From the NCBI GenBank assembly GCA_002069765.1, contig MWBZ01000005.1, positions 42,214 to 106,213 of the forward strand: a stretch of DNA of 64,000 nt, in the 5' to 3' direction. Below the pieces are notes generated by a model. It worked only from the letters and a program-made list of their open reading frames with translations. It did not search any database and was not told the DNA's origin. Positions 39,130 through 45,297 of this stretch are shown piece by piece (the first letter of the stretch is position 1; each line of letters begins with the position of its first letter). The stretch comes from a bacterium ADurb.Bin243 (lineage in GTDB: Bacteria > Muiribacteriota > UBA9980). The position numbers and the translations under genes are program-made.

Positions 39130-39262
39130 AATAATATTATATTACAAATCCCGTTAATTTTCAATTGGATTTCATTATAGATAATTTTATTTTTATATGC
39201 ATATTTTTCGAGTTTTATCCAGAACTTCGGTACTTGAATCTAAAGCCGATAATATTTATACC

Positions 39263-40363
39263 ATGAATATTTTTAAAAAGGAACTTTCGATAAATAAAAT
39301 TTTTTTTATACTAATATCGTGCTTCGCTTTTATTTTATGCGGCCATCGGGCCGAGGCCGGACAAAAGGCGGATTCCGTAATAACGCCGGCGTTCGGAATT
39401 ATTTTAAAATCTTATATAAAAGTTCCTTCCGGAGAGATATTTCTTGGAGATATCTGCGATTTTAAAACCGAGCCAGGCTTTAAAACCGATCTTGAAAAAA
39501 TAAAAAATATTCAACTGGGTTTCGCCCCGCCGCCTTTCGTCGAAAGGCGCATATATAAATTCGAGACGGAAAACGCGATACGGGGAAAACTGGAATTTCC
39601 TTCCGGCTGCGGCTATTCGATAGGAGGAGCGGATTACTGCAGGGTAACGTCTTTCGCCGGAGGCGAAACTGACGGCAAAGCGAAATCACTTTTAAAAAAA
39701 GAACTGGAAAATAAGATAGGCGAACTTTTCATTAAAAAATATTCGGGCGAGTTCGAAATCGGCGCTAAAGATAAAATCGCCGTTTCGATCACGGGCGGCC
39801 TGGGCCGTGAAGCCGTAAAAAAATTAACCGCGTCGGCCGAAGCCAGGATAGATATTGTTGGTTATAAATCATCAGCGGCCGATATCGTCGTTTCTGCGGA
39901 AAATGTCACGCCGCTGAAATTAACGGCTAAAATAACCAGAAAAACTCCCGCCGCGGCGGCGCGCGAAAACCTTTCAAAAAATACGGTTATAGATATGAAT
40001 AAAATAATGACTCGTGAAATCGAAATTTTTGCCGAAAAATATGGTGAGTTATTTTTAATAAACGATTCGATCGAAAATGATCGGGAATTGTCTAAAATCG
40101 CCGCCGAAGGACTTGAGTTAATCAGAAACGTGCGCGCGGGCGAAATTTTGAAAAAAAGCTTTTTTAACAAGAAAATCCTTGTAAAAGCAGGGCAGACGAT
40201 TGTTTTACATTTGAGGAATAAACGATCTAGTATTTCTTTTTCGGCGACGGCGTCTAAAAATGCCGGCGAAGGAGATATTATAGAAGCGGTGAACCCGAGG
40301 ACGCGCAAAAAATATAAGGCCGTAGTGAGCGGCGAAGGGACCGCGGAAGCCGTTGAAAATTAA
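39263..40363 (+). CDS. flgA: Flagellar basal-body P-ring formation chaperone.
   Basis: Signal peptide. C-terminal SAF-like domain VRAGEILKKSFF...VKAGQTIVLHL...GDIIEAVNPRTRKKYKAVVSGEG. Sits directly upstream of flgH-flgI. Confidence 0.65.
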   Translation: MNIFKKELSINKIFFILISCFAFILCGHRAEAGQKADSVITPAFGIILKSYIKVPSGEIFLGDICDFKTEPGFKTDLEKIKNIQLGFAPPPFVERRIYKFETENAIRGKLEFPSGCGYSIGGADYCRVTSFAGGETDGKAKSLLKKELENKIGELFIKKYSGEFEIGAKDKIAVSITGGLGREAVKKLTASAEARIDIVGYKSSAADIVVSAENVTPLKLTAKITRKTPAAAARENLSKNTVIDMNKIMTREIEIFAEKYGELFLINDSIENDRELSKIAAEGLELIRNVRAGEILKKSFFNKKILVKAGQTIVLHLRNKRSSISFSATASKNAGEGDIIEAVNPRTRKKYKAVVSGEGTAEAVEN

Positions 40364-40498
40364 TTCGCGCGCGCCGCAAGGGTAAATCCGGGAGATCCCC
40401 GGAAAAAAAGAAAAACGGGTAATCATAATAAAACATAGCACCAGTCGCAGCATTGTCGTAATTTAGTCGGAGTATTTTTAAATTATATCGGAGGCAGA

Positions 40499-41110
40499 AT
40501 GTATCGCAGCGCTTTTAAGAGATTTTTGATTTTATCGTTGGTAAGTTTCTGTGTTATTGGATTTGCGGCGGCCGAACTCAAAGCCGAATCGCTCTGGCGC
40601 GAAGCCGAAGAGGAATCGGCCGGACAGTCGATATTTTCAGAAACAAAGGGGCATAAAATAGGCGATATAATAACCATTTTGATAATAGAAAATTCTACGG
40701 CCGTGCAGAAAGCCACGACCCAGAATAAAAAATCTTCCACGGTAGGCGCGAAAGCCGGAACGGGTCCTTTGAGTTTTATCCCAAATATTTCCAGCAGCAC
40801 TTCGGGCGATTTTTCCGGCGACGGCTCCACGACGCGTTCGGGAACCATAACGGCCAAAATCTCCGCCCGCGTCACTAAGATTTACCCCAACGGCAACCTT
40901 GCCATAGAAGGCAAGCGCAGCATAAGAATAAACGACGAAGTGCAGGACATTACGATAAACGGCATCGCGCGCACGCTCGATATAACATCTGATAATACGA
41001 TATTATCAACATTTTTAGCCGACGCCCAGATCAAGTATAAAGGAAACGGCGTCGTAGGGACCGTTAACAGGCCGGGAGTAATCAAAAGAGTATCCGATTG
41101 GCTTTTTTAA
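40499..41110 (+). CDS. flgH: Flagellar L-ring protein.
   Basis: GDIITILIIENSTA...NGNLAIEGKRSIRINDEVQDITINGIARTLDI... Confidence 0.85.
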   Translation: MYRSAFKRFLILSLVSFCVIGFAAAELKAESLWREAEEESAGQSIFSETKGHKIGDIITILIIENSTAVQKATTQNKKSSTVGAKAGTGPLSFIPNISSSTSGDFSGDGSTTRSGTITAKISARVTKIYPNGNLAIEGKRSIRINDEVQDITINGIARTLDITSDNTILSTFLADAQIKYKGNGVVGTVNRPGVIKRVSDWLF

Positions 41111-41150
41111 CGGCGACCGAAAAGAAAAAATATAGTTAAATATAGGCGGT

Positions 41151-42311
41151 ATGCAAATGGTAAAAACCCAAAAACGATCGAACGGAAAGAAATTGATGAA
41201 AGCTCTTGCGGCTGTTTTATGCGCGGCTTTTATCTTAAATTTTTTATCGGTGTCTTATGCGGGAATAATAACGCGCATCAAAGATATCGCCAGAATCGGC
41301 GGAGTGCGCGAAAACCAGCTTGTGGGTTACGGCGTGGTCGTAGGCCTTGAGGGCAGCGGCGACAAGAACATCATGACCGCGCAATCGATCGTAAATATGC
41401 TCAAGTCATTCGACGTTACGCTGGACCCGAAGACTTTGAAGGCCCAGAATTCCGCCGCCGTAATGGTTACGGCCAATATTCTTCCGTTCATGAGCGAAGG
41501 CGATAAGCTCGACGTCGTGGTTTCGTCGATAGGCGACGCCAAAAGCATTCAGGGCGGAGTTCTTTTGCAGACGCCGCTAAAGGGCGCCAACGGCAAGGTT
41601 TACGCCGTAGCGCAGGGGCCGGTTTCTCTCGGGCAGCTGGGTTCGAGCCAGCAGTCGGCGGGCGGAGTCAAACTTCATCCCCTGGTCGCCAGGATCCCCG
41701 GCGGGGCGCTTATAGAAAGAGAAATATCGAGCGATTTTGTCGCTGACGAAAAGATCGAGATCGTTTTAAATAAAAAGGATTTTTCCACCGCCAATGCCGT
41801 GTCTGCGGCCATCTGCGACAAGTTCGGCGAAGGGTTCGCCAGGGCGAAAAACGCCGGCGTAGTTACCGTGAAGGTCCCTTCGAGCTTCGAAGACAACGTG
41901 GTGGGATTTCTGGCCGCCGTCGAATCGCTCAGCGTCCAGACCGACAACGCTTCTAAAATCGTTATAAACGAAAAGACCGGCACGATAGTGCTGGGCGACG
42001 ACGTGAGAATAAGCCCCGTGGCTATTTCTCATAACGGAATAAAACTCAAAGTCGCGGAAGCTCCCGCTGGCGCTCCTGTTCAGGCTCAGGCTGGCGCGGC
42101 GCAAAATCAGCCGCCGGCGCCGGGTAATGCGGCAGCGGCGCGCGCGAGAGGCGGCGGAGAAAAGAATATAATTTACCTTAACGCCGGCTCCACCGTGCGC
42201 GATATGGTGGACGCCCTTAATGAAATGGGCGCGTACGCCAAGGACATTATCGCGATTATCCAGGCCATGAAGGCCGCCGGCGCCATCCAGAGCGAAATAG
42301 AAGTAATTTAG
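41151..42311 (+). CDS. flgI: Flagellar P-ring protein.
   Basis: RIKDIARIGGVRENQLVGYGVVVGLEGSGD...LQTPLKGANGKVYAVAQGPVSLG. Confidence 0.9.
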   Translation: MQMVKTQKRSNGKKLMKALAAVLCAAFILNFLSVSYAGIITRIKDIARIGGVRENQLVGYGVVVGLEGSGDKNIMTAQSIVNMLKSFDVTLDPKTLKAQNSAAVMVTANILPFMSEGDKLDVVVSSIGDAKSIQGGVLLQTPLKGANGKVYAVAQGPVSLGQLGSSQQSAGGVKLHPLVARIPGGALIEREISSDFVADEKIEIVLNKKDFSTANAVSAAICDKFGEGFARAKNAGVVTVKVPSSFEDNVVGFLAAVESLSVQTDNASKIVINEKTGTIVLGDDVRISPVAISHNGIKLKVAEAPAGAPVQAQAGAAQNQPPAPGNAAAARARGGGEKNIIYLNAGSTVRDMVDALNEMGAYAKDIIAIIQAMKAAGAIQSEIEVI

Positions 42312-43471: not shown

Positions 43472-43482
43472 AAATAAAACAG

Positions 43483-43515
43483 GGAGCCGCCTTCTTCAGG
43501 CGGCTCCTTTTTTTA
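43483..43515. terminator. Bidirectional rho-independent terminator: ggagccgcc-ttcttca-ggcggctcc, with a T8 run downstream and an A-rich run upstream.
   Basis: Read directly between the convergent genes ending at 43471 (+) and 43562 (-). Confidence 0.7.
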
Positions 43516-43561: not shown

Positions 43562-45262
43562 TTACCATTCTTTGCCTTCCATGACGAGGTTTTTAACCAG
43601 TTCATATCTTTCGGGGCTCATCTGCCTCATGGATTTTCCGTAAACTACATAATAAGCGATTGCTTCGGCCATATCTTCCATTACGTTGCTGCCGCCGTAC
43701 TGCGAAATGGCCGGAGGATTCGCGCCGCCTGCGCTGCCCGAGTAACCGTTTCTGCCGGACCAGAACTTTTGCTGAAACTGGTTCTGGAGTTCGTAAGTTT
43801 GAAAGTGAAAGCAGTGGCCCATTTCGTGGATAAGCACGCGCCTGTAATCGCAGTTCAAACCGAGAGGCGTAATAGTTATGCTCGAACCGCTGGCGAAGCC
43901 GCCTATATTGCTCATGCCGGGGAACATTCCTTCGGCGGAGCCTTTGGCGAGCGTGAGGGTTTTTCTTACGAAGCTCTGCGGAAGCTCCGATAATATGTCC
44001 ATGGTCGTTTTCAATTCCTGCTCTGTCCATACGTATTTTGGCGCTTCGCCGTCGACTATGGTGATGCCGAACTTTTCCTGGATTTGCTTGATGAGCTCTT
44101 TGGCTCCGGGCGTGCGGTTATCGACGGTGTTGTCTTTCGGAGTGTTATCGCCGTTCATCTGACGGTTTTGCTGCTTGATCATTTCGTCGAACGGGTCTTT
44201 GAAGTTGTTGTTGACGTTCTGGTTATTGTTATTTGGCGGAAGCGGGGGAATCGGAGGGAACTGCGGCTGCCCGGATATATCGTTATCGTTGTTTTTCGGC
44301 GGCTGCGGAACCGGAGGCGCCGGCGGGTTTACGTTTTGATTGTTGCCGCCCTGGTTCTGCACGTTGCGTCCGTTATCGTCCTGCGGTTTTTTGGGGTTGC
44401 GGTTCAATATGTCCCAGGGGTTCGAGCCTATATTTTTTCCGCTGTTTATGTCGTTGTTTACGTTGCCGTCGTTTGCGCCGTTATTGCCCGGATCGGGGAA
44501 ATCGTCGTCTTTGTTGCCCTGCTGATTGTTAACGCCGCCGTCATTAACGTTATTTTTGCCGTCGTCGTTGTTTGGGATTAAATTATCGCCGCCGTTGTTG
44601 CCGTCGAAGATTTTATTCAAATCGGCGATTTCTTTTGCCGTGTCATCGAGAGTTTTTTCGATATTTTTGAATATGTTTTCGAGTTTTTTGTTGAACGATT
44701 TGAACATATTTTCAAAAATAGATTCCAGGTCTTTGAAAAAATTGGAAAAAGCGTTTTCCAGGCTGCGCGCCAGGTCGAATCCGCCGTCTTCGACTTCGTT
44801 TCCGCCGCCGTTTATATTTTTATTATCGTTATCGTTTTTCGCGCCGTTATCGGCCTTGTCGGCGTTATTTCCGCCGTCGGCATCGCCATTGTCTTTTGAG
44901 CCGTCATTATTTTTTTCGCCGGCCATGCTTTTAGCTTCGATTATTTTGCCGATCTTTTCCGCCAGATCGCTGGAATAGCCGACGATTTTTTCCCCGCCGA
45001 CGATATAGGTCGGATAAAGTTTTACGCCGTATTTGGAGCCGGCCCCGAGGTCCGCTTCGATGAATTCGGCGCGGTCGCCATATTTTTCTCTGGCCTGTTC
45101 GACCAGAGGCTTCGCTTTTTCGCACCACTGGCAGCTCGGCGTCGAAAAGATCAGGACCTCGACCTTATCGCCCGCCGCCGTGGATACTGCCGGATAAAAT
45201 AAAAATGAAAACATGAGGACTGCGAACAATAAAAAACCGTAACATTTTTTCATAAACAACAC
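43562..45262 (-). CDS. Secreted three-part protein: an N-terminal thioredoxin/glutaredoxin-fold domain (CQWC), a ~330-aa low-complexity linker (Asn/Asp/Gly/Lys-rich, then Asn/Gln/Pro-rich), and a C-terminal zincin-like HExxH domain.
   Basis: Signal peptide MKKCYGFLLFAVLMFSFLFYPAVSTAAG. VLIFSTPSCQWCEKAKP...YPTYIVGG. The linker ...NNDNDISGQPQFPPIPPLPPNNNNQNVNNNF.... C-terminal LIHEMGHCFHFQ...NVMEDMAEAIAYY (HExxH plus a downstream Glu). Confidence 0.6.
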   Translation of the reverse strand: MLFMKKCYGFLLFAVLMFSFLFYPAVSTAAGDKVEVLIFSTPSCQWCEKAKPLVEQAREKYGDRAEFIEADLGAGSKYGVKLYPTYIVGGEKIVGYSSDLAEKIGKIIEAKSMAGEKNNDGSKDNGDADGGNNADKADNGAKNDNDNKNINGGGNEVEDGGFDLARSLENAFSNFFKDLESIFENMFKSFNKKLENIFKNIEKTLDDTAKEIADLNKIFDGNNGGDNLIPNNDDGKNNVNDGGVNNQQGNKDDDFPDPGNNGANDGNVNNDINSGKNIGSNPWDILNRNPKKPQDDNGRNVQNQGGNNQNVNPPAPPVPQPPKNNDNDISGQPQFPPIPPLPPNNNNQNVNNNFKDPFDEMIKQQNRQMNGDNTPKDNTVDNRTPGAKELIKQIQEKFGITIVDGEAPKYVWTEQELKTTMDILSELPQSFVRKTLTLAKGSAEGMFPGMSNIGGFASGSSITITPLGLNCDYRRVLIHEMGHCFHFQTYELQNQFQQKFWSGRNGYSGSAGGANPPAISQYGGSNVMEDMAEAIAYYVVYGKSMRQMSPERYELVKNLVMEGKEW

Positions 45263-45297
45263 CTCTCTAATTTATTACTTGTGTAAATTTAACTTTT

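Follow-up and report, generated by a model that had tools for sequence, protein, structure and literature searches.

The last gene of a pilin and sigma factor block in bacterium ADurb.Bin243 (Ca. Wallbacteria) raises the question of what an exported protein that joins a thioredoxin fold to a zinc peptidase domain may do beside a set of pseudopilins. The gene was analysed within a window of 64,000 nucleotides, that is, the whole stretch of DNA considered here. A preliminary description, made from the sequence, had depicted its product as a secreted protein in which a thioredoxin-like domain and a gluzincin-like domain are separated by a disordered linker of possibly phase-variable length, and had suggested that it serves as a site-1-type protease, a pilin-processing enzyme or a disulfide-handling factor.

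Gene and protein architecture

The 566-codon open reading frame on the minus strand (43562..45262) is a real gene, and its product is annotated in GenBank (OQA81190.1; bacterium ADurb.Bin243/Ca. Wallbacteria) as a "hypothetical protein". Translation starts at ATG 45253 and not at GTG 45262, the start given by the ORF finder, because AGAGAGG is located 8 nt upstream of the ATG and the 563-aa form occurs in GenBank as well as in other assemblies. From its N-terminus, the protein comprises a Sec signal peptide, a CxxC thioredoxin module of 85 aa, a ~260-aa spacer and a C-terminal zincin domain of 190 aa (Table 1). All motifs named in the preliminary description are present: CQWC, followed by YPTYIVGG, LIHEMGHCFH around HEMGH, and EDMAEA from 43678. 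Export is predicted from a single N-terminal hydrophobic segment (Kyte-Doolittle 15-aa maximum of 2.31 versus 1.02 elsewhere in the protein) that runs into T-A-A/G, and the earlier designation of the protein as secreted is thus retained as a prediction by hydropathy and inspection.

Table 1. Features of the zincin gene, its product and the adjoining gene cluster (positions in the window; a slash marks a cleavage site)
Feature	Position	Strand	Remarks
Terminator-like bidirectional intrinsic hairpin	43481..43509	.	12 pairs (8 G-C); serves this gene and the convergent GT4 gene alike
CDS, 563-aa protein	43565..45253	-	Stop codon 43562-43564; exact product is OQA81190.1, also in Logan contig L001
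LF/PPEP/MtfA-type gluzincin domain (predicted), aa 373-563	43565..44137	-	HEMGH, aa 476-480 (43814-43828); Y519, 43697-43699; EDMAE, aa 526-530 (43664-43678)
Low-complexity spacer 2, aa 218-372	44138..44602	-	N 27%, P 14%, D 11%, G 10%, Q 8%; conserved islands at aa ~272-284 and ~350-362
Phe-rich amphipathic helix, aa 158-217	44603..44782	-	Conserved in P0002, P0003, P0005 and P0051
Low-complexity spacer 1, aa 113-157	44783..44917	-	N 26%, D 20%, G 20%, K 11%
Minimal thioredoxin-fold module (predicted), aa 28-112	44918..45172	-	CQWC, aa 41-44 (45122-45133); putative cis-Pro P81 in YPT
Signal peptide (predicted), aa 1-27	45173..45253	-	MKK, hydrophobic core, TAA/G; no lipobox; sole strongly hydrophobic segment; sequence inspection
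Shine-Dalgarno-like AGAGAGG	45262..45268	-	8 nt 5' of ATG 45253; read from sequence
Transmembrane anti-sigma factor, 387 aa	45298..46461	-	ZAS motif (C30, H32-x3-C36-x2-C39), one TM helix, periplasmic FecR domain
Pseudopilin, 255 aa	46574..47341	-	G/FTVVE
Pseudopilin, 172 aa, PilV-like	47344..47862	-	G/AFSFVE
Giant protein, 912 aa	47893..50631	-	Pseudopilin-like N-terminal helix without Glu5; PilX/GspK-like by inspection; no Pfam/NCBIfam family
Exported FecR-domain protein, 231 aa	50672..51367	-	Without cytoplasmic anti-sigma domain
ECF sigma factor, 214 aa	51364..52008	-	First gene of putative operon
Promoter-like site	52018..52047	-	Best sigma-70-like match of the region (11/12, extended -10 TG); consensus match only; just 5' of the sigma gene

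The genes for the ECF sigma factor, the FecR protein, the giant PilX-like protein, the two pseudopilins, the ZAS/FecR anti-sigma factor and the zincin read as one putative operon, as suggested by consensus scans, in which a promoter-like site precedes the sigma gene and a terminator-like hairpin immediately follows the zincin gene, and by the gap of only 44 nt between the anti-sigma and zincin genes. This arrangement agrees with the earlier placement of the gene at the end of the pilin/sigma block, directly downstream of the anti-sigma gene. The 912-aa protein contains more than a dozen cysteines. Among the 36 ORFs scanned in the 64-kb window, no machinery for type IV pili or type II secretion (secretin, ATPase, platform) and no DsbB/DsbD-type partners were found. 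FlgH and FlgI are present and are taken to indicate an outer membrane, which would make the host a diderm.

The thioredoxin module

The N-terminal 85 residues are assigned, by profile comparison, to a minimal CxxC thioredoxin fold. A two-sequence profile of the module recognises 56 thioredoxin-family chains in the PDB at E<=0.01 (best 4.3e-6), in line with the thioredoxin-like domain proposed earlier. CQWC falls on CGPC when aligned with human, E. coli and ancestral thioredoxins, which puts the CxxC behind strand 1, where helix 1 starts; the proline of YPT (P81) matches that of the conserved (I/M)PT, which we take to be the cis-Pro of the thioredoxin fold in the loop before strand 3. The module stays below the curated thresholds of Pfam Thioredoxin (20.2 versus 23.5 bits), Thioredoxin_3 (19.5 versus 24.8 bits) and TIGR00411 (23.3 versus 92.75 bits), and a word-indexed homolog search with it gave no matches.

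MJ0307-type minimal thioredoxins (TIGR00411 redox_disulf_1, Pfam Thioredoxin_3, PDB 1fo5 and 1nho) are of similar size (~85 aa) and share with the module the CxxC after strand 1 and the aligned proline, which belongs to YPT in the module and to PT in thioredoxins. TIGR00411 is the best NCBIfam match of the query (E 4.9e-5), and 1nho and 1fo5 are among its PDB matches. Unlike these thioredoxins, the module is exported, fused to a protease and marked by the unusual dipeptide of CQWC.

The fusion of thioredoxin and zincin is as rare as had been supposed: a search with the thioredoxin profile through ~166 other family proteins and all ORFs of 39 loci located it only in the query lineage and one other. 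Both lineages are Wallbacteria, and sister orthologs are devoid of the module, including P0002 and L024, whose zincin domains are 83-93% identical to that of the query. The module therefore appears to be an optional add-on and not the core function, and disulfide handling, one of the roles first suggested, is unlikely as the main role because these orthologs manage without it. A predominantly redox function, in which the protein would act as a disulfide oxidoreductase for pilins or tip proteins and the HExxH domain would serve only for binding or targeting, could account for a CxxC thioredoxin fold within an exported protein and for the cysteine-rich 912-aa neighbour; it is nevertheless very improbable, since the module is missing from P0002, L024 and all other family members, and the 97-100% conservation of the catalytic zincin residues speaks for a functional peptidase. 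We also considered, and rejected, a C468-C481 disulfide as the purpose of the module: P0003 and P0002 lack C468, and some three helical turns separate the two cysteines in the secondary structure predicted here.

The spacer

The spacer measures ~260 aa (aa 113-372), shorter than the ~330 aa first estimated. Its description as a long low-complexity linker holds for the composition, which is rich in Asn, Asp, Gly and Pro, but not for uniform disorder, since a 60-aa amphipathic helix and two conserved motifs are embedded in it. The hydrophobic moment of the helix reaches z = 7.2 against 1000 shuffles, and the helix is kept in relatives down to P0005 and P0051; the two short motifs, GxNIxSNPWDxLN and NFxxPFDExxKQQ, are conserved among orthologs. 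The low complexity noted in the underlying DNA is confirmed as well: the composition is extreme at ~44140-44920, and the AT skew of -0.436 at 44001-45000 is the strongest among 64 one-kb bins.

Such biased composition, together with ortholog lengths of 563, 538, ~472 and 462 aa that reflect linkers of differing length, would be compatible with a contingency locus whose linker length shifts by slipped-strand mispairing. The DNA itself offers little substrate for this process, as Tandem Repeats Finder reported just one weak repeat (score 34, 66% matches) and the longest simple repeats in a regex search were three trinucleotide copies and an A7 tract. Moreover, ten close population variants (>=98% identity, independent samples) contain no indels, and their 550-aa forms are alternative start calls. 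The suggested phase variation of the linker is thus close to refuted.

The zincin domain and its family

The C-terminal 190 residues are assigned, from their sequence, to the zinc metallopeptidases of the structural class formed by anthrax lethal factor (LF), Pro-Pro endopeptidases (PPEPs) and MtfA. The predicted catalytic set is complete: zinc would be bound by H476, H480 and, as the third ligand, E526, while E477 would act as general base, and Y519 precedes E526 by seven residues. As expected for this class, the third-ligand Glu lies in an E-x-x-A-E helix ~45 residues downstream of HExxH. These positions are nearly invariant in 97 homolog domains (H476 99%, E477 100%, H480 99%, Y519 97%, E526 100%, D527 100%, E530 97%), and this 97-100% conservation of the catalytic residues argues for a working peptidase. 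The gluzincin motif proposed for the C-terminus is thereby upheld, with HExxH and the downstream Glu 99-100% conserved; taken with the thioredoxin profile matches, this leaves both domains of the initial description in place. The overall fold also appears similar to that of solved LF/PPEP-type members in an AlphaFold model computed from a 27-sequence alignment; a single-sequence run reached only pLDDT 36.

An exhaustive HMMER search indicates that the family comprises at least 209 representatives (clusters at 50% identity) at E<=1e-3; a word-indexed search with the C-terminal 187 aa returned one 88%-identical fragment only. Members occur in MAGs of Wallbacteria, Riflebacteria, Elusimicrobiota and Methylomirabilota and are concentrated in uncultivated phyla. 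The query passes no curated Pfam or NCBIfam threshold, and the same applies to most members tested. Literature on minor-pilin-associated metalloproteases with ECF sigma factors and on the biology of Wallbacteria yielded nothing about this zincin family.

Lethal factor is the sole solved protein that the family profile matches at a significant level, with its catalytic domain (M34, Pfam ATLF PF07737) at E 1.8e-5 and with HExxH, the YG pair and the E..AE residues in register, so that Y-G-x5-E-x2-A-E is common to both. In the query, Y519 and E526 (EDMAE) align with SYGRTNEAEFFAE of lethal factor, where the equivalents are Y728 and E735. ATLF gives weak matches in 7 of 27 family members (best E 4.6e-4) and none in the query. 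Lethal factor is, unlike the query, a large multidomain toxin delivered by protective antigen.

PPEP-1, PPEP-2 and PPEP-3 (MEROPS M34; PDB 5a0p, 6fpc and 9g0j) each consist of one small, secreted zincin domain, in which HExxH is accompanied by a Tyr and, seven residues after it, a Glu. The genes of PPEP-1 and PPEP-2 adjoin those of their own surface-protein substrates, and the query gene likewise adjoins genes for a surface filament. In contrast to the query, PPEPs have no thioredoxin module, long tether or pilin context. Their preference for Pro-Pro bonds is conferred by the S-loop (Trp/Tyr) and the diverting loop. Identity to the query domain is only 15-18%, with profile E-values of 0.04-0.06 to PPEP-1 and PPEP-3 chains. 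PPEP homologs (E<1e-25) are confined to Firmicutes (PMC8610288); the present family departs from this level of homology and from this distribution, and is not PPEP proper. The specificity of PPEPs or lethal factor is not transferable to the query because identity amounts to only 14-18%.

MtfA/Peptidase_M90 (PF06167; PDB 3dl1 and 3khi) is the Pfam family most often grazed, by 18 of 27 members (best E 2.5e-5), and several members carry precomputed "faint" M90 matches below threshold; the query itself has no PF06167 match at E<=1. MtfA lacks a signal peptide, being an aminopeptidase that resides in the cytoplasm and binds a regulator, and its genomic context differs from that of the query. The best direct Pfam match of the query C-terminus is Peptidase_Mx1 (PF15890; BACCAC_01431, PDB 4l7a; E 0.003, 17.3 bits versus a cut-off of 25.6), and the best NCBIfam match is TIGR04549 (LP_HExxH_w_tonB, [quoted passage not shown], PDB 9urd; E 0.0019, 17.5 versus 75 bits). 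Both represent Bacteroidota lipoproteins tied to TonB/SusCD loci, whereas the query lacks a lipobox and its cluster lacks a TonB-dependent receptor.

Genomic context and proposed substrate of the predicted protease

The seven-gene order of the query recurs in L003, L004 and L024, and the zincin gene is adjacent to a ZAS/FecR anti-sigma gene in four Wallbacteria loci. In Ca. Rifleibacterium (L014/L027) the order is zincin, sigma, ZAS anti-sigma, PilX-like protein, pilin, pilin. Conservation of zincin/anti-sigma synteny is restricted to the Wallbacteria and Rifleibacterium clades. The order of giant protein, pilin, pilin and zincin also persists in three distant lineages, namely L008, L013 and L017 (the last being Ca. 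Methylomirabilis), where neither strand of 8-19 kb encodes a sigma or anti-sigma homolog, which points to the pilin module as the conserved partner of the zincin. In 224 kb of core-family loci, 13 of 14 prepilin-motif ORFs adjoin the zincin gene; the control, ~229 kb of distant-family loci, contained none after removal of L017, a locus that does not belong in the control set and whose two pilins were the sole "background" matches. The link to pilins, though frequent, is not universal: the flanks available for L005-7, L009-12 and L025-26, roughly half of the sampled lineages of the family, are free of pilin genes. Many relatives carry, instead or additionally, a conserved secreted partner of ~155 aa, for which no match at E<=10 was obtained in the window or in the C-terminus of the anti-sigma factor.

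The reading favoured here, with modest confidence, is that of a Sec-exported, three-part envelope endopeptidase whose substrate is a product of the adjoining pilin module. An envelope or surface product of this module is the most likely target because the gene order recurs in distant phyla, in three lineages without sigma and anti-sigma genes. The protein would act in the periplasm or on the surface of the diderm host and cut a product of the pilin module, the likeliest substrate being the giant tip-type protein or a pseudopilin, and less likely the periplasmic domain of the anti-sigma factor. The helix-bearing tether may position or restrain the protease, and the thioredoxin add-on would probably provide thiol/disulfide care of Cys-rich partners or of C481 beside the zinc site.

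The site-1 role raised in the preliminary description would require the zincin to cleave the 387-aa ZAS anti-sigma factor within its periplasmic FecR domain and thereby free the ECF sigma factor that drives the operon. The zincin gene directly follows the only true anti-sigma gene of the cluster (ZAS, TM helix and FecR), this adjacency is also found in L003, L004 and L024, the zincin gene of Ca. Rifleibacterium directly precedes the sigma/ZAS-anti-sigma pair, and both the zincin and the anti-sigma domain are predicted to be periplasmic. Such an assignment is weakened by the three lineages that dispense with sigma and anti-sigma genes, by the absence of sigma or pilin genes near about half of the family, and by the anti-sigma gene being the least conserved of the block (E 1e-41 to 1e-57 versus 1e-80 to 1e-140 for the pilins). 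In Prc/RseP cell-surface signalling, an ECF sigma factor, a transmembrane anti-sigma factor with a FecR domain and an extracytoplasmic protease are encoded together, as in the query cluster; however, the latter has no TonB-dependent transducer, and its companions are pseudopilins. The zincin is also unrelated to Prc (S41), DegS (S1) and PrsW. Known site-1 protease families (DegS, Prc, PrsW, signal peptidase) were absent from every family scan of the query. To our knowledge, FecR-type anti-sigma factors are processed by autoproteolysis, Prc and RseP, and not by a co-encoded zincin. Cleavage of the anti-sigma factor is thus possible but weaker than cleavage of a pilin-module product, and on the whole unlikely.

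A general secreted exoprotease, either cargo of a pseudopilus-driven (type II-like) device or a nutritional or competitive protease without a specific substrate in the cluster, would fit the presence of a signal peptide and the lack of a membrane anchor. Pseudopilin-tip modules (GspK/I/J, for example) form part of secretion machines, and zincins are frequent among the proteins secreted through type II systems. Tandem zincin paralogs in L011, L013 and L017 and an M20 peptidase gene beside the zincin gene in L009 and L010 could be read in the same way. This option is doubtful, as the window is devoid of genes for a secretin, an ATPase or a platform; PPEPs and LF, the nearest enzymes by structure, are highly specific endopeptidases; and the tight, order-conserved place after the pilins across phyla, combined with sigma/anti-sigma control, argues for a specific role.

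A more far-reaching and quite speculative scenario is a pilus-coupled surface signalling device, in which a type IV-filament tip complex assumes the part that the TonB-dependent transducer plays in classical FecIR systems. The signal-triggered protease would then be the LF/PPEP-like zincin, which would either cut the FecR-type anti-sigma factor (site 1) or shed the giant tip protein and so switch the cell between attachment and motility. If this proposal, which has a rather low probability, were true, the zincin family would be the conserved proteolytic partner of an undescribed minor-pilin module across several candidate phyla.

Implications

The protein does not constitute a new kind of system but belongs to an uncharacterised protease family. 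With at least 209 clusters at 50% identity, this sizeable family consists of exported, LF/PPEP/MtfA-like predicted zinc peptidases, which the sources that name them list as "hypothetical protein". It takes the M34/M90 structural class further than the toxins and adhesin-releasing enzymes of Firmicutes. The repeated position of these genes directly after a module of one giant protein and two pseudopilins, sometimes with an ECF sigma/anti-sigma pair, provides a testable link between a protease and the tip of a type IV filament. The thioredoxin fusion, as a rare architecture, might reveal the way in which an anaerobe links an exported protease to thiol chemistry. Current understanding is not overturned by this family, which constitutes a well-delimited lead for enzymologists and pilus biologists.

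Assignment of the zincin domain

The zincin protein is encoded by a minus-strand open reading frame of 566 codons (43562..45262). The GTG start chosen by the ORF finder overlaps a Shine-Dalgarno-like AGAGAGG, and ATG 45253, 8 nt 3' of that motif, gives a 563-aa product, the exact form in OQA81190.1 ("hypothetical protein BWY32_00474", bacterium ADurb.Bin243), which is also found on a separate Logan contig; near-identical copies carry the label Candidatus Wallbacteria. Every motif quoted in the preliminary description is present, namely CQWC (nt 45122-45133), YPTYIVGG, LIHEMGHCFH (HEMGH at 43814-43828) and EDMAEA (from 43678), and its low-complexity DNA corresponds to an AT skew of -0.436 in 44001-45000, the most extreme bin of the window.

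The protein falls below every Pfam and NCBIfam threshold, with Peptidase_Mx1 (E 0.003) and TIGR04549 (E 0.0019) as best matches, and single-member scans of 27 relatives gave sub-threshold contact with Peptidase_M90 (18/27), Peptidase_Mx1 (9/27) and ATLF (7/27). Against the PDB, the family profile matched the catalytic domain of anthrax lethal factor (LF) at E 1.8e-5, with HExxH and Y-G-x5-E-x2-A-E in register; the Tyr and Glu correspond to LF Y728 and E735. Structure comparison of an AlphaFold model built from a 27-sequence alignment (Table) and Foldseek, which retrieved the same set of relatives (PPEP-1 TM 0.60), place the modelled domain as a gluzincin of the structural class of LF, the Pro-Pro endopeptidases (PPEPs) and MtfA, whose catalytic set is intact. 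None of the families proposed earlier (SprT, DUF4157, M48, M78) includes it. The protein is predicted to function as gluzincins of the M34/M90 class do. By curated sequence criteria it is a member of neither PPEP proper, ATLF, Peptidase_M90 nor Peptidase_Mx1, and the most fitting description is a new, unclassified family in the LF/PPEP/MtfA structural class. The window also encodes a second large exported protease, an S8 subtilase with no bearing on these findings.

A word-indexed search recovered a single fragment of this family, and an exhaustive HMMER scan yielded 209 cluster representatives at E<=1e-3. Typical members have 300-400 aa and are built of a signal peptide, an N-region of variable, low-complexity sequence and a C-terminal zincin domain; those named by a source are called "hypothetical protein". 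Members with a name and a location trace to MAGs of Riflebacteria, Ozemobacter, Rifleibacterium, Wallbacteria, Elusimicrobiota and Methylomirabilis; Poribacteria and Bacteroidota have more remote relatives, which are giant multidomain proteins. In this protein and many others of the family, a Cys (C481) directly follows the second zinc His (HEMxHC), and the alignment shows that many members have another Cys in the loop that leads into the active-site helix. A redox switch or an extra ligand is a putative role for C481 in the family.

Features of the zincin protein, its putative operon and related loci (nucleotide positions are in the window unless a contig locus, L, is named; conservation is over 97 full-length domains; comparison values are for the zincin domain model)
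Feature	Position	Strand	Detail
Signal peptide	aa 1-27		sole strongly hydrophobic stretch; Kyte-Doolittle 15-aa maximum 2.31 vs 1.02 elsewhere
Thioredoxin module	aa 28-112
Spacer	aa 113-372		~260 aa, three parts
Asn/Asp/Gly/Lys stretch	aa 113-157
Phe-rich amphipathic helix	aa 158-217		60 aa
Asn/Pro/Asp/Gly/Gln stretch	aa 218-372
Zincin domain	aa 373-563
H476			99% conserved
E477			100% conserved
H480			99% conserved
Y519			97% conserved
E526			100% conserved
D527			100% conserved
E530			97% conserved
Comparison, PPEP-3			11.2
Comparison, PPEP-2			11.1
Comparison, lethal factor			10.2
Comparison, MtfA			10.0
Comparison, BACCAC_01431 (Peptidase_Mx1)			9.3
Comparison, Wss1			7.1
Comparison, thermolysin-type enzymes			about 5
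574-aa protein	56224-57948	-	heads block
Upstream giant/pilin/pilin set	52115-56060	-	898, 165 and 253 aa
Promoter-like site	52047-52018	-	11/12 matches, extended -10
ECF sigma		-	first gene; 214 aa
Exported FecR-domain protein	50672-51367	-	second gene; 231 aa; without anti-sigma domain
Downstream giant/pilin/pilin set	46574-50631	-	912, 172 and 255 aa
912-aa protein		-	third gene; N-terminus resembles pseudopilin helix without Glu5
Pseudopilin		-	fourth gene; 172 aa
Pseudopilin		-	fifth gene; 255 aa
Anti-sigma	45298-46461	-	sixth gene; 387 aa; H-x3-C-x2-C, one TM helix, FecR domain
Zincin gene	43565..45253	-	seventh gene; after 44-nt gap 3' of anti-sigma gene
Strong bidirectional terminator	43481-43509		directly after zincin gene
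FlgA/FlgH/FlgI	39197-42311	+
S8 subtilase	12024-14780	+	918 aa; CarboxypepD_reg domains
MotA/MotB	L008:191-1730
Flagellin	L017:4685-5488
~155-aa secreted protein	L005/6:8891-9367, L008:8999-9478, L012:5287-5751	+
~155-aa secreted protein	L025:1450-1914, L026:8492-8983, L028:232-711	+
~155-aa secreted protein	L013:262-735, L014:4348-4857, L017:5697-6305	-
Tandem zincin paralogs	L011:9404-11658		Ca. Ozemobacter
Tandem zincin paralogs	L013:4061-6627		binchicken MAG
Tandem zincin paralogs	L017:9482-11973		Ca. Methylomirabilis
M20-family peptidase	L009:4469-5728		JPNA MAG
M20-family peptidase	L010:5319-6578		Ca. Wallbacteria GWC2_49_35

Export and domain architecture

As its only strongly hydrophobic stretch is a signal peptide that ends in T-A-A|G and lacks a lipobox, the protein is predicted to be soluble and Sec-exported. 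Flagellar L and P rings usually go with an outer membrane, and the neighbouring FlgH and FlgI genes suggest a diderm envelope; its first destination would therefore be the periplasm.

The thioredoxin region lies below all curated thresholds (Pfam Thioredoxin 20.2 bits, cut-off 23.5; TIGR00411 E 4.9e-5). A profile of two sequences, the protein and its one relative carrying the module, nevertheless matched 56 thioredoxin-family PDB chains at E<=0.01 (best 4.3e-6), which bears out the proposed fold; in the alignment CQWC falls on CGPC, and the proline of YPT on that of the thioredoxin PT, taken here as the cis-Pro. As had been anticipated, this thioredoxin-tether-zincin arrangement is rare: in a search of ~166 other family proteins and every ORF of 39 loci, the profile found the fusion in only this lineage and that of P0003/L003. 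In the relatives P0002 (83% identical in the zincin) and L024 (93%), the signal peptide runs directly into the amphipathic helix. Since these two lack the module and only two lineages have it, the module and the first spacer stretch are a lineage-specific insertion, not the core of the protein.

A long spacer does separate the two domains, but it measures ~260 aa and not the ~330 first estimated. Its helix has a mean hydrophobic moment of 1.90, against 0.70±0.17 in shuffles (z 7.2), and is kept in four relatives (P0002, P0003, P0005 and P0051); the stretch after it contains two short motifs conserved among orthologs. Linker length varies between orthologs. Nothing supports the suggestion of phase variation: TRF returned one weak row, simple repeats extend no further than three trinucleotide copies and A7, and no indel occurs in ten variants that share >=98% identity and come from independent samples.

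Genomic context

The giant/pilin/pilin set is duplicated in tandem, with one copy on either side of the sigma gene and the two giant proteins 58% identical; L003 and L004 have one copy, and the start of L024 suggests two. Scanning assigned no Pfam family to the proteins of either set or to the 574-aa protein, which keeps its place, flanked by a DegT aminotransferase gene and the sigma gene, in L003 and L004. The first FecR protein, whose gene immediately follows that of the sigma factor, carries only a signal or anchor sequence, with no cytoplasmic anti-sigma domain; the zinc-binding anti-sigma (ZAS) domain sits on the second, five genes downstream, an unusual split for an ECF module. A scan of 36 ORFs of the window revealed no pilus or secretion machinery.

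The seven-gene order is repeated in three other Wallbacteria-clade contigs (L003, L004 and L024), all with different downstream neighbours. In distant relatives (21-32% identical), giant (~700 aa), pilin, pilin and zincin are kept in L008, L013 and L017 (Ca. Methylomirabilis), whose flanks contain no sigma or anti-sigma homolog, and in Ca. Rifleibacterium (L014/L027) the order is zincin, ECF sigma, ZAS anti-sigma, PilX-like protein, pilin, pilin. The core-family loci (224 kb) contain 14 ORFs with a prepilin motif, and 13 of these adjoin the zincin; control loci (L017 excluded) have none. The pilin link is not universal: no pilin gene lies nearby in about half of the lineages that were sampled (L005-7, L009-12, L025-26). 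As literature searches returned nothing on it, this neighbourhood link appears to be undescribed.

Other genes recur around the zincin. A conserved ~155-aa secreted protein of no known family, with motifs AMIxTLxLxDL and GxWP...GMG, accompanies it in at least five lineages; its HMM has no match in the window, L003, L004 or L024, and it might serve as an inhibitor, a chaperone or a substrate and have been lost or replaced in the Wallbacteria clade. Tandem paralogs occur in three loci. In the two closest named non-orthologous relatives (L009 and L010), a conserved M20-family peptidase gene follows the zincin without pilin context. Motility genes lie near the pilin-zincin module in three unrelated loci and are absent from L003 and L004; this proximity may be a chance event, yet it recalls the adhesion/motility role of PPEP-1.

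Proposed mechanism and substrate

The protein combines an export signal, a complete, strongly conserved zinc site of the LF type, a CxxC thioredoxin fold and operon-like placement, and its family is recurrently adjacent to a minor-pilin tip-type module. It would be an endopeptidase that acts on a product of the pilin module, either in the periplasm or on the cell surface. As speculation, the tether with its helix may help the enzyme to dock or keep it restrained, and the thioredoxin module may shield or rearrange thiols of the Cys-rich 912-aa protein, or C481 beside the second zinc His.

PPEP-1 and PPEP-2, the closest structural relatives with known biology, cleave surface adhesins encoded next to their own genes and function as an adhesion/motility switch (PMC8610288, PMC12828418), so that a substrate encoded next door would be a reasonable prior by analogy. 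The periplasmic domain of the anti-sigma protein is the second candidate, since two separate clades have a sigma/anti-sigma pair alongside the module; a pilus-coupled sigma-signalling device with the zincin as its trigger protease seems rather improbable. The giant tip-type protein or the pseudopilins are favoured as the substrate, because their adjacency to the zincin survives across phyla.
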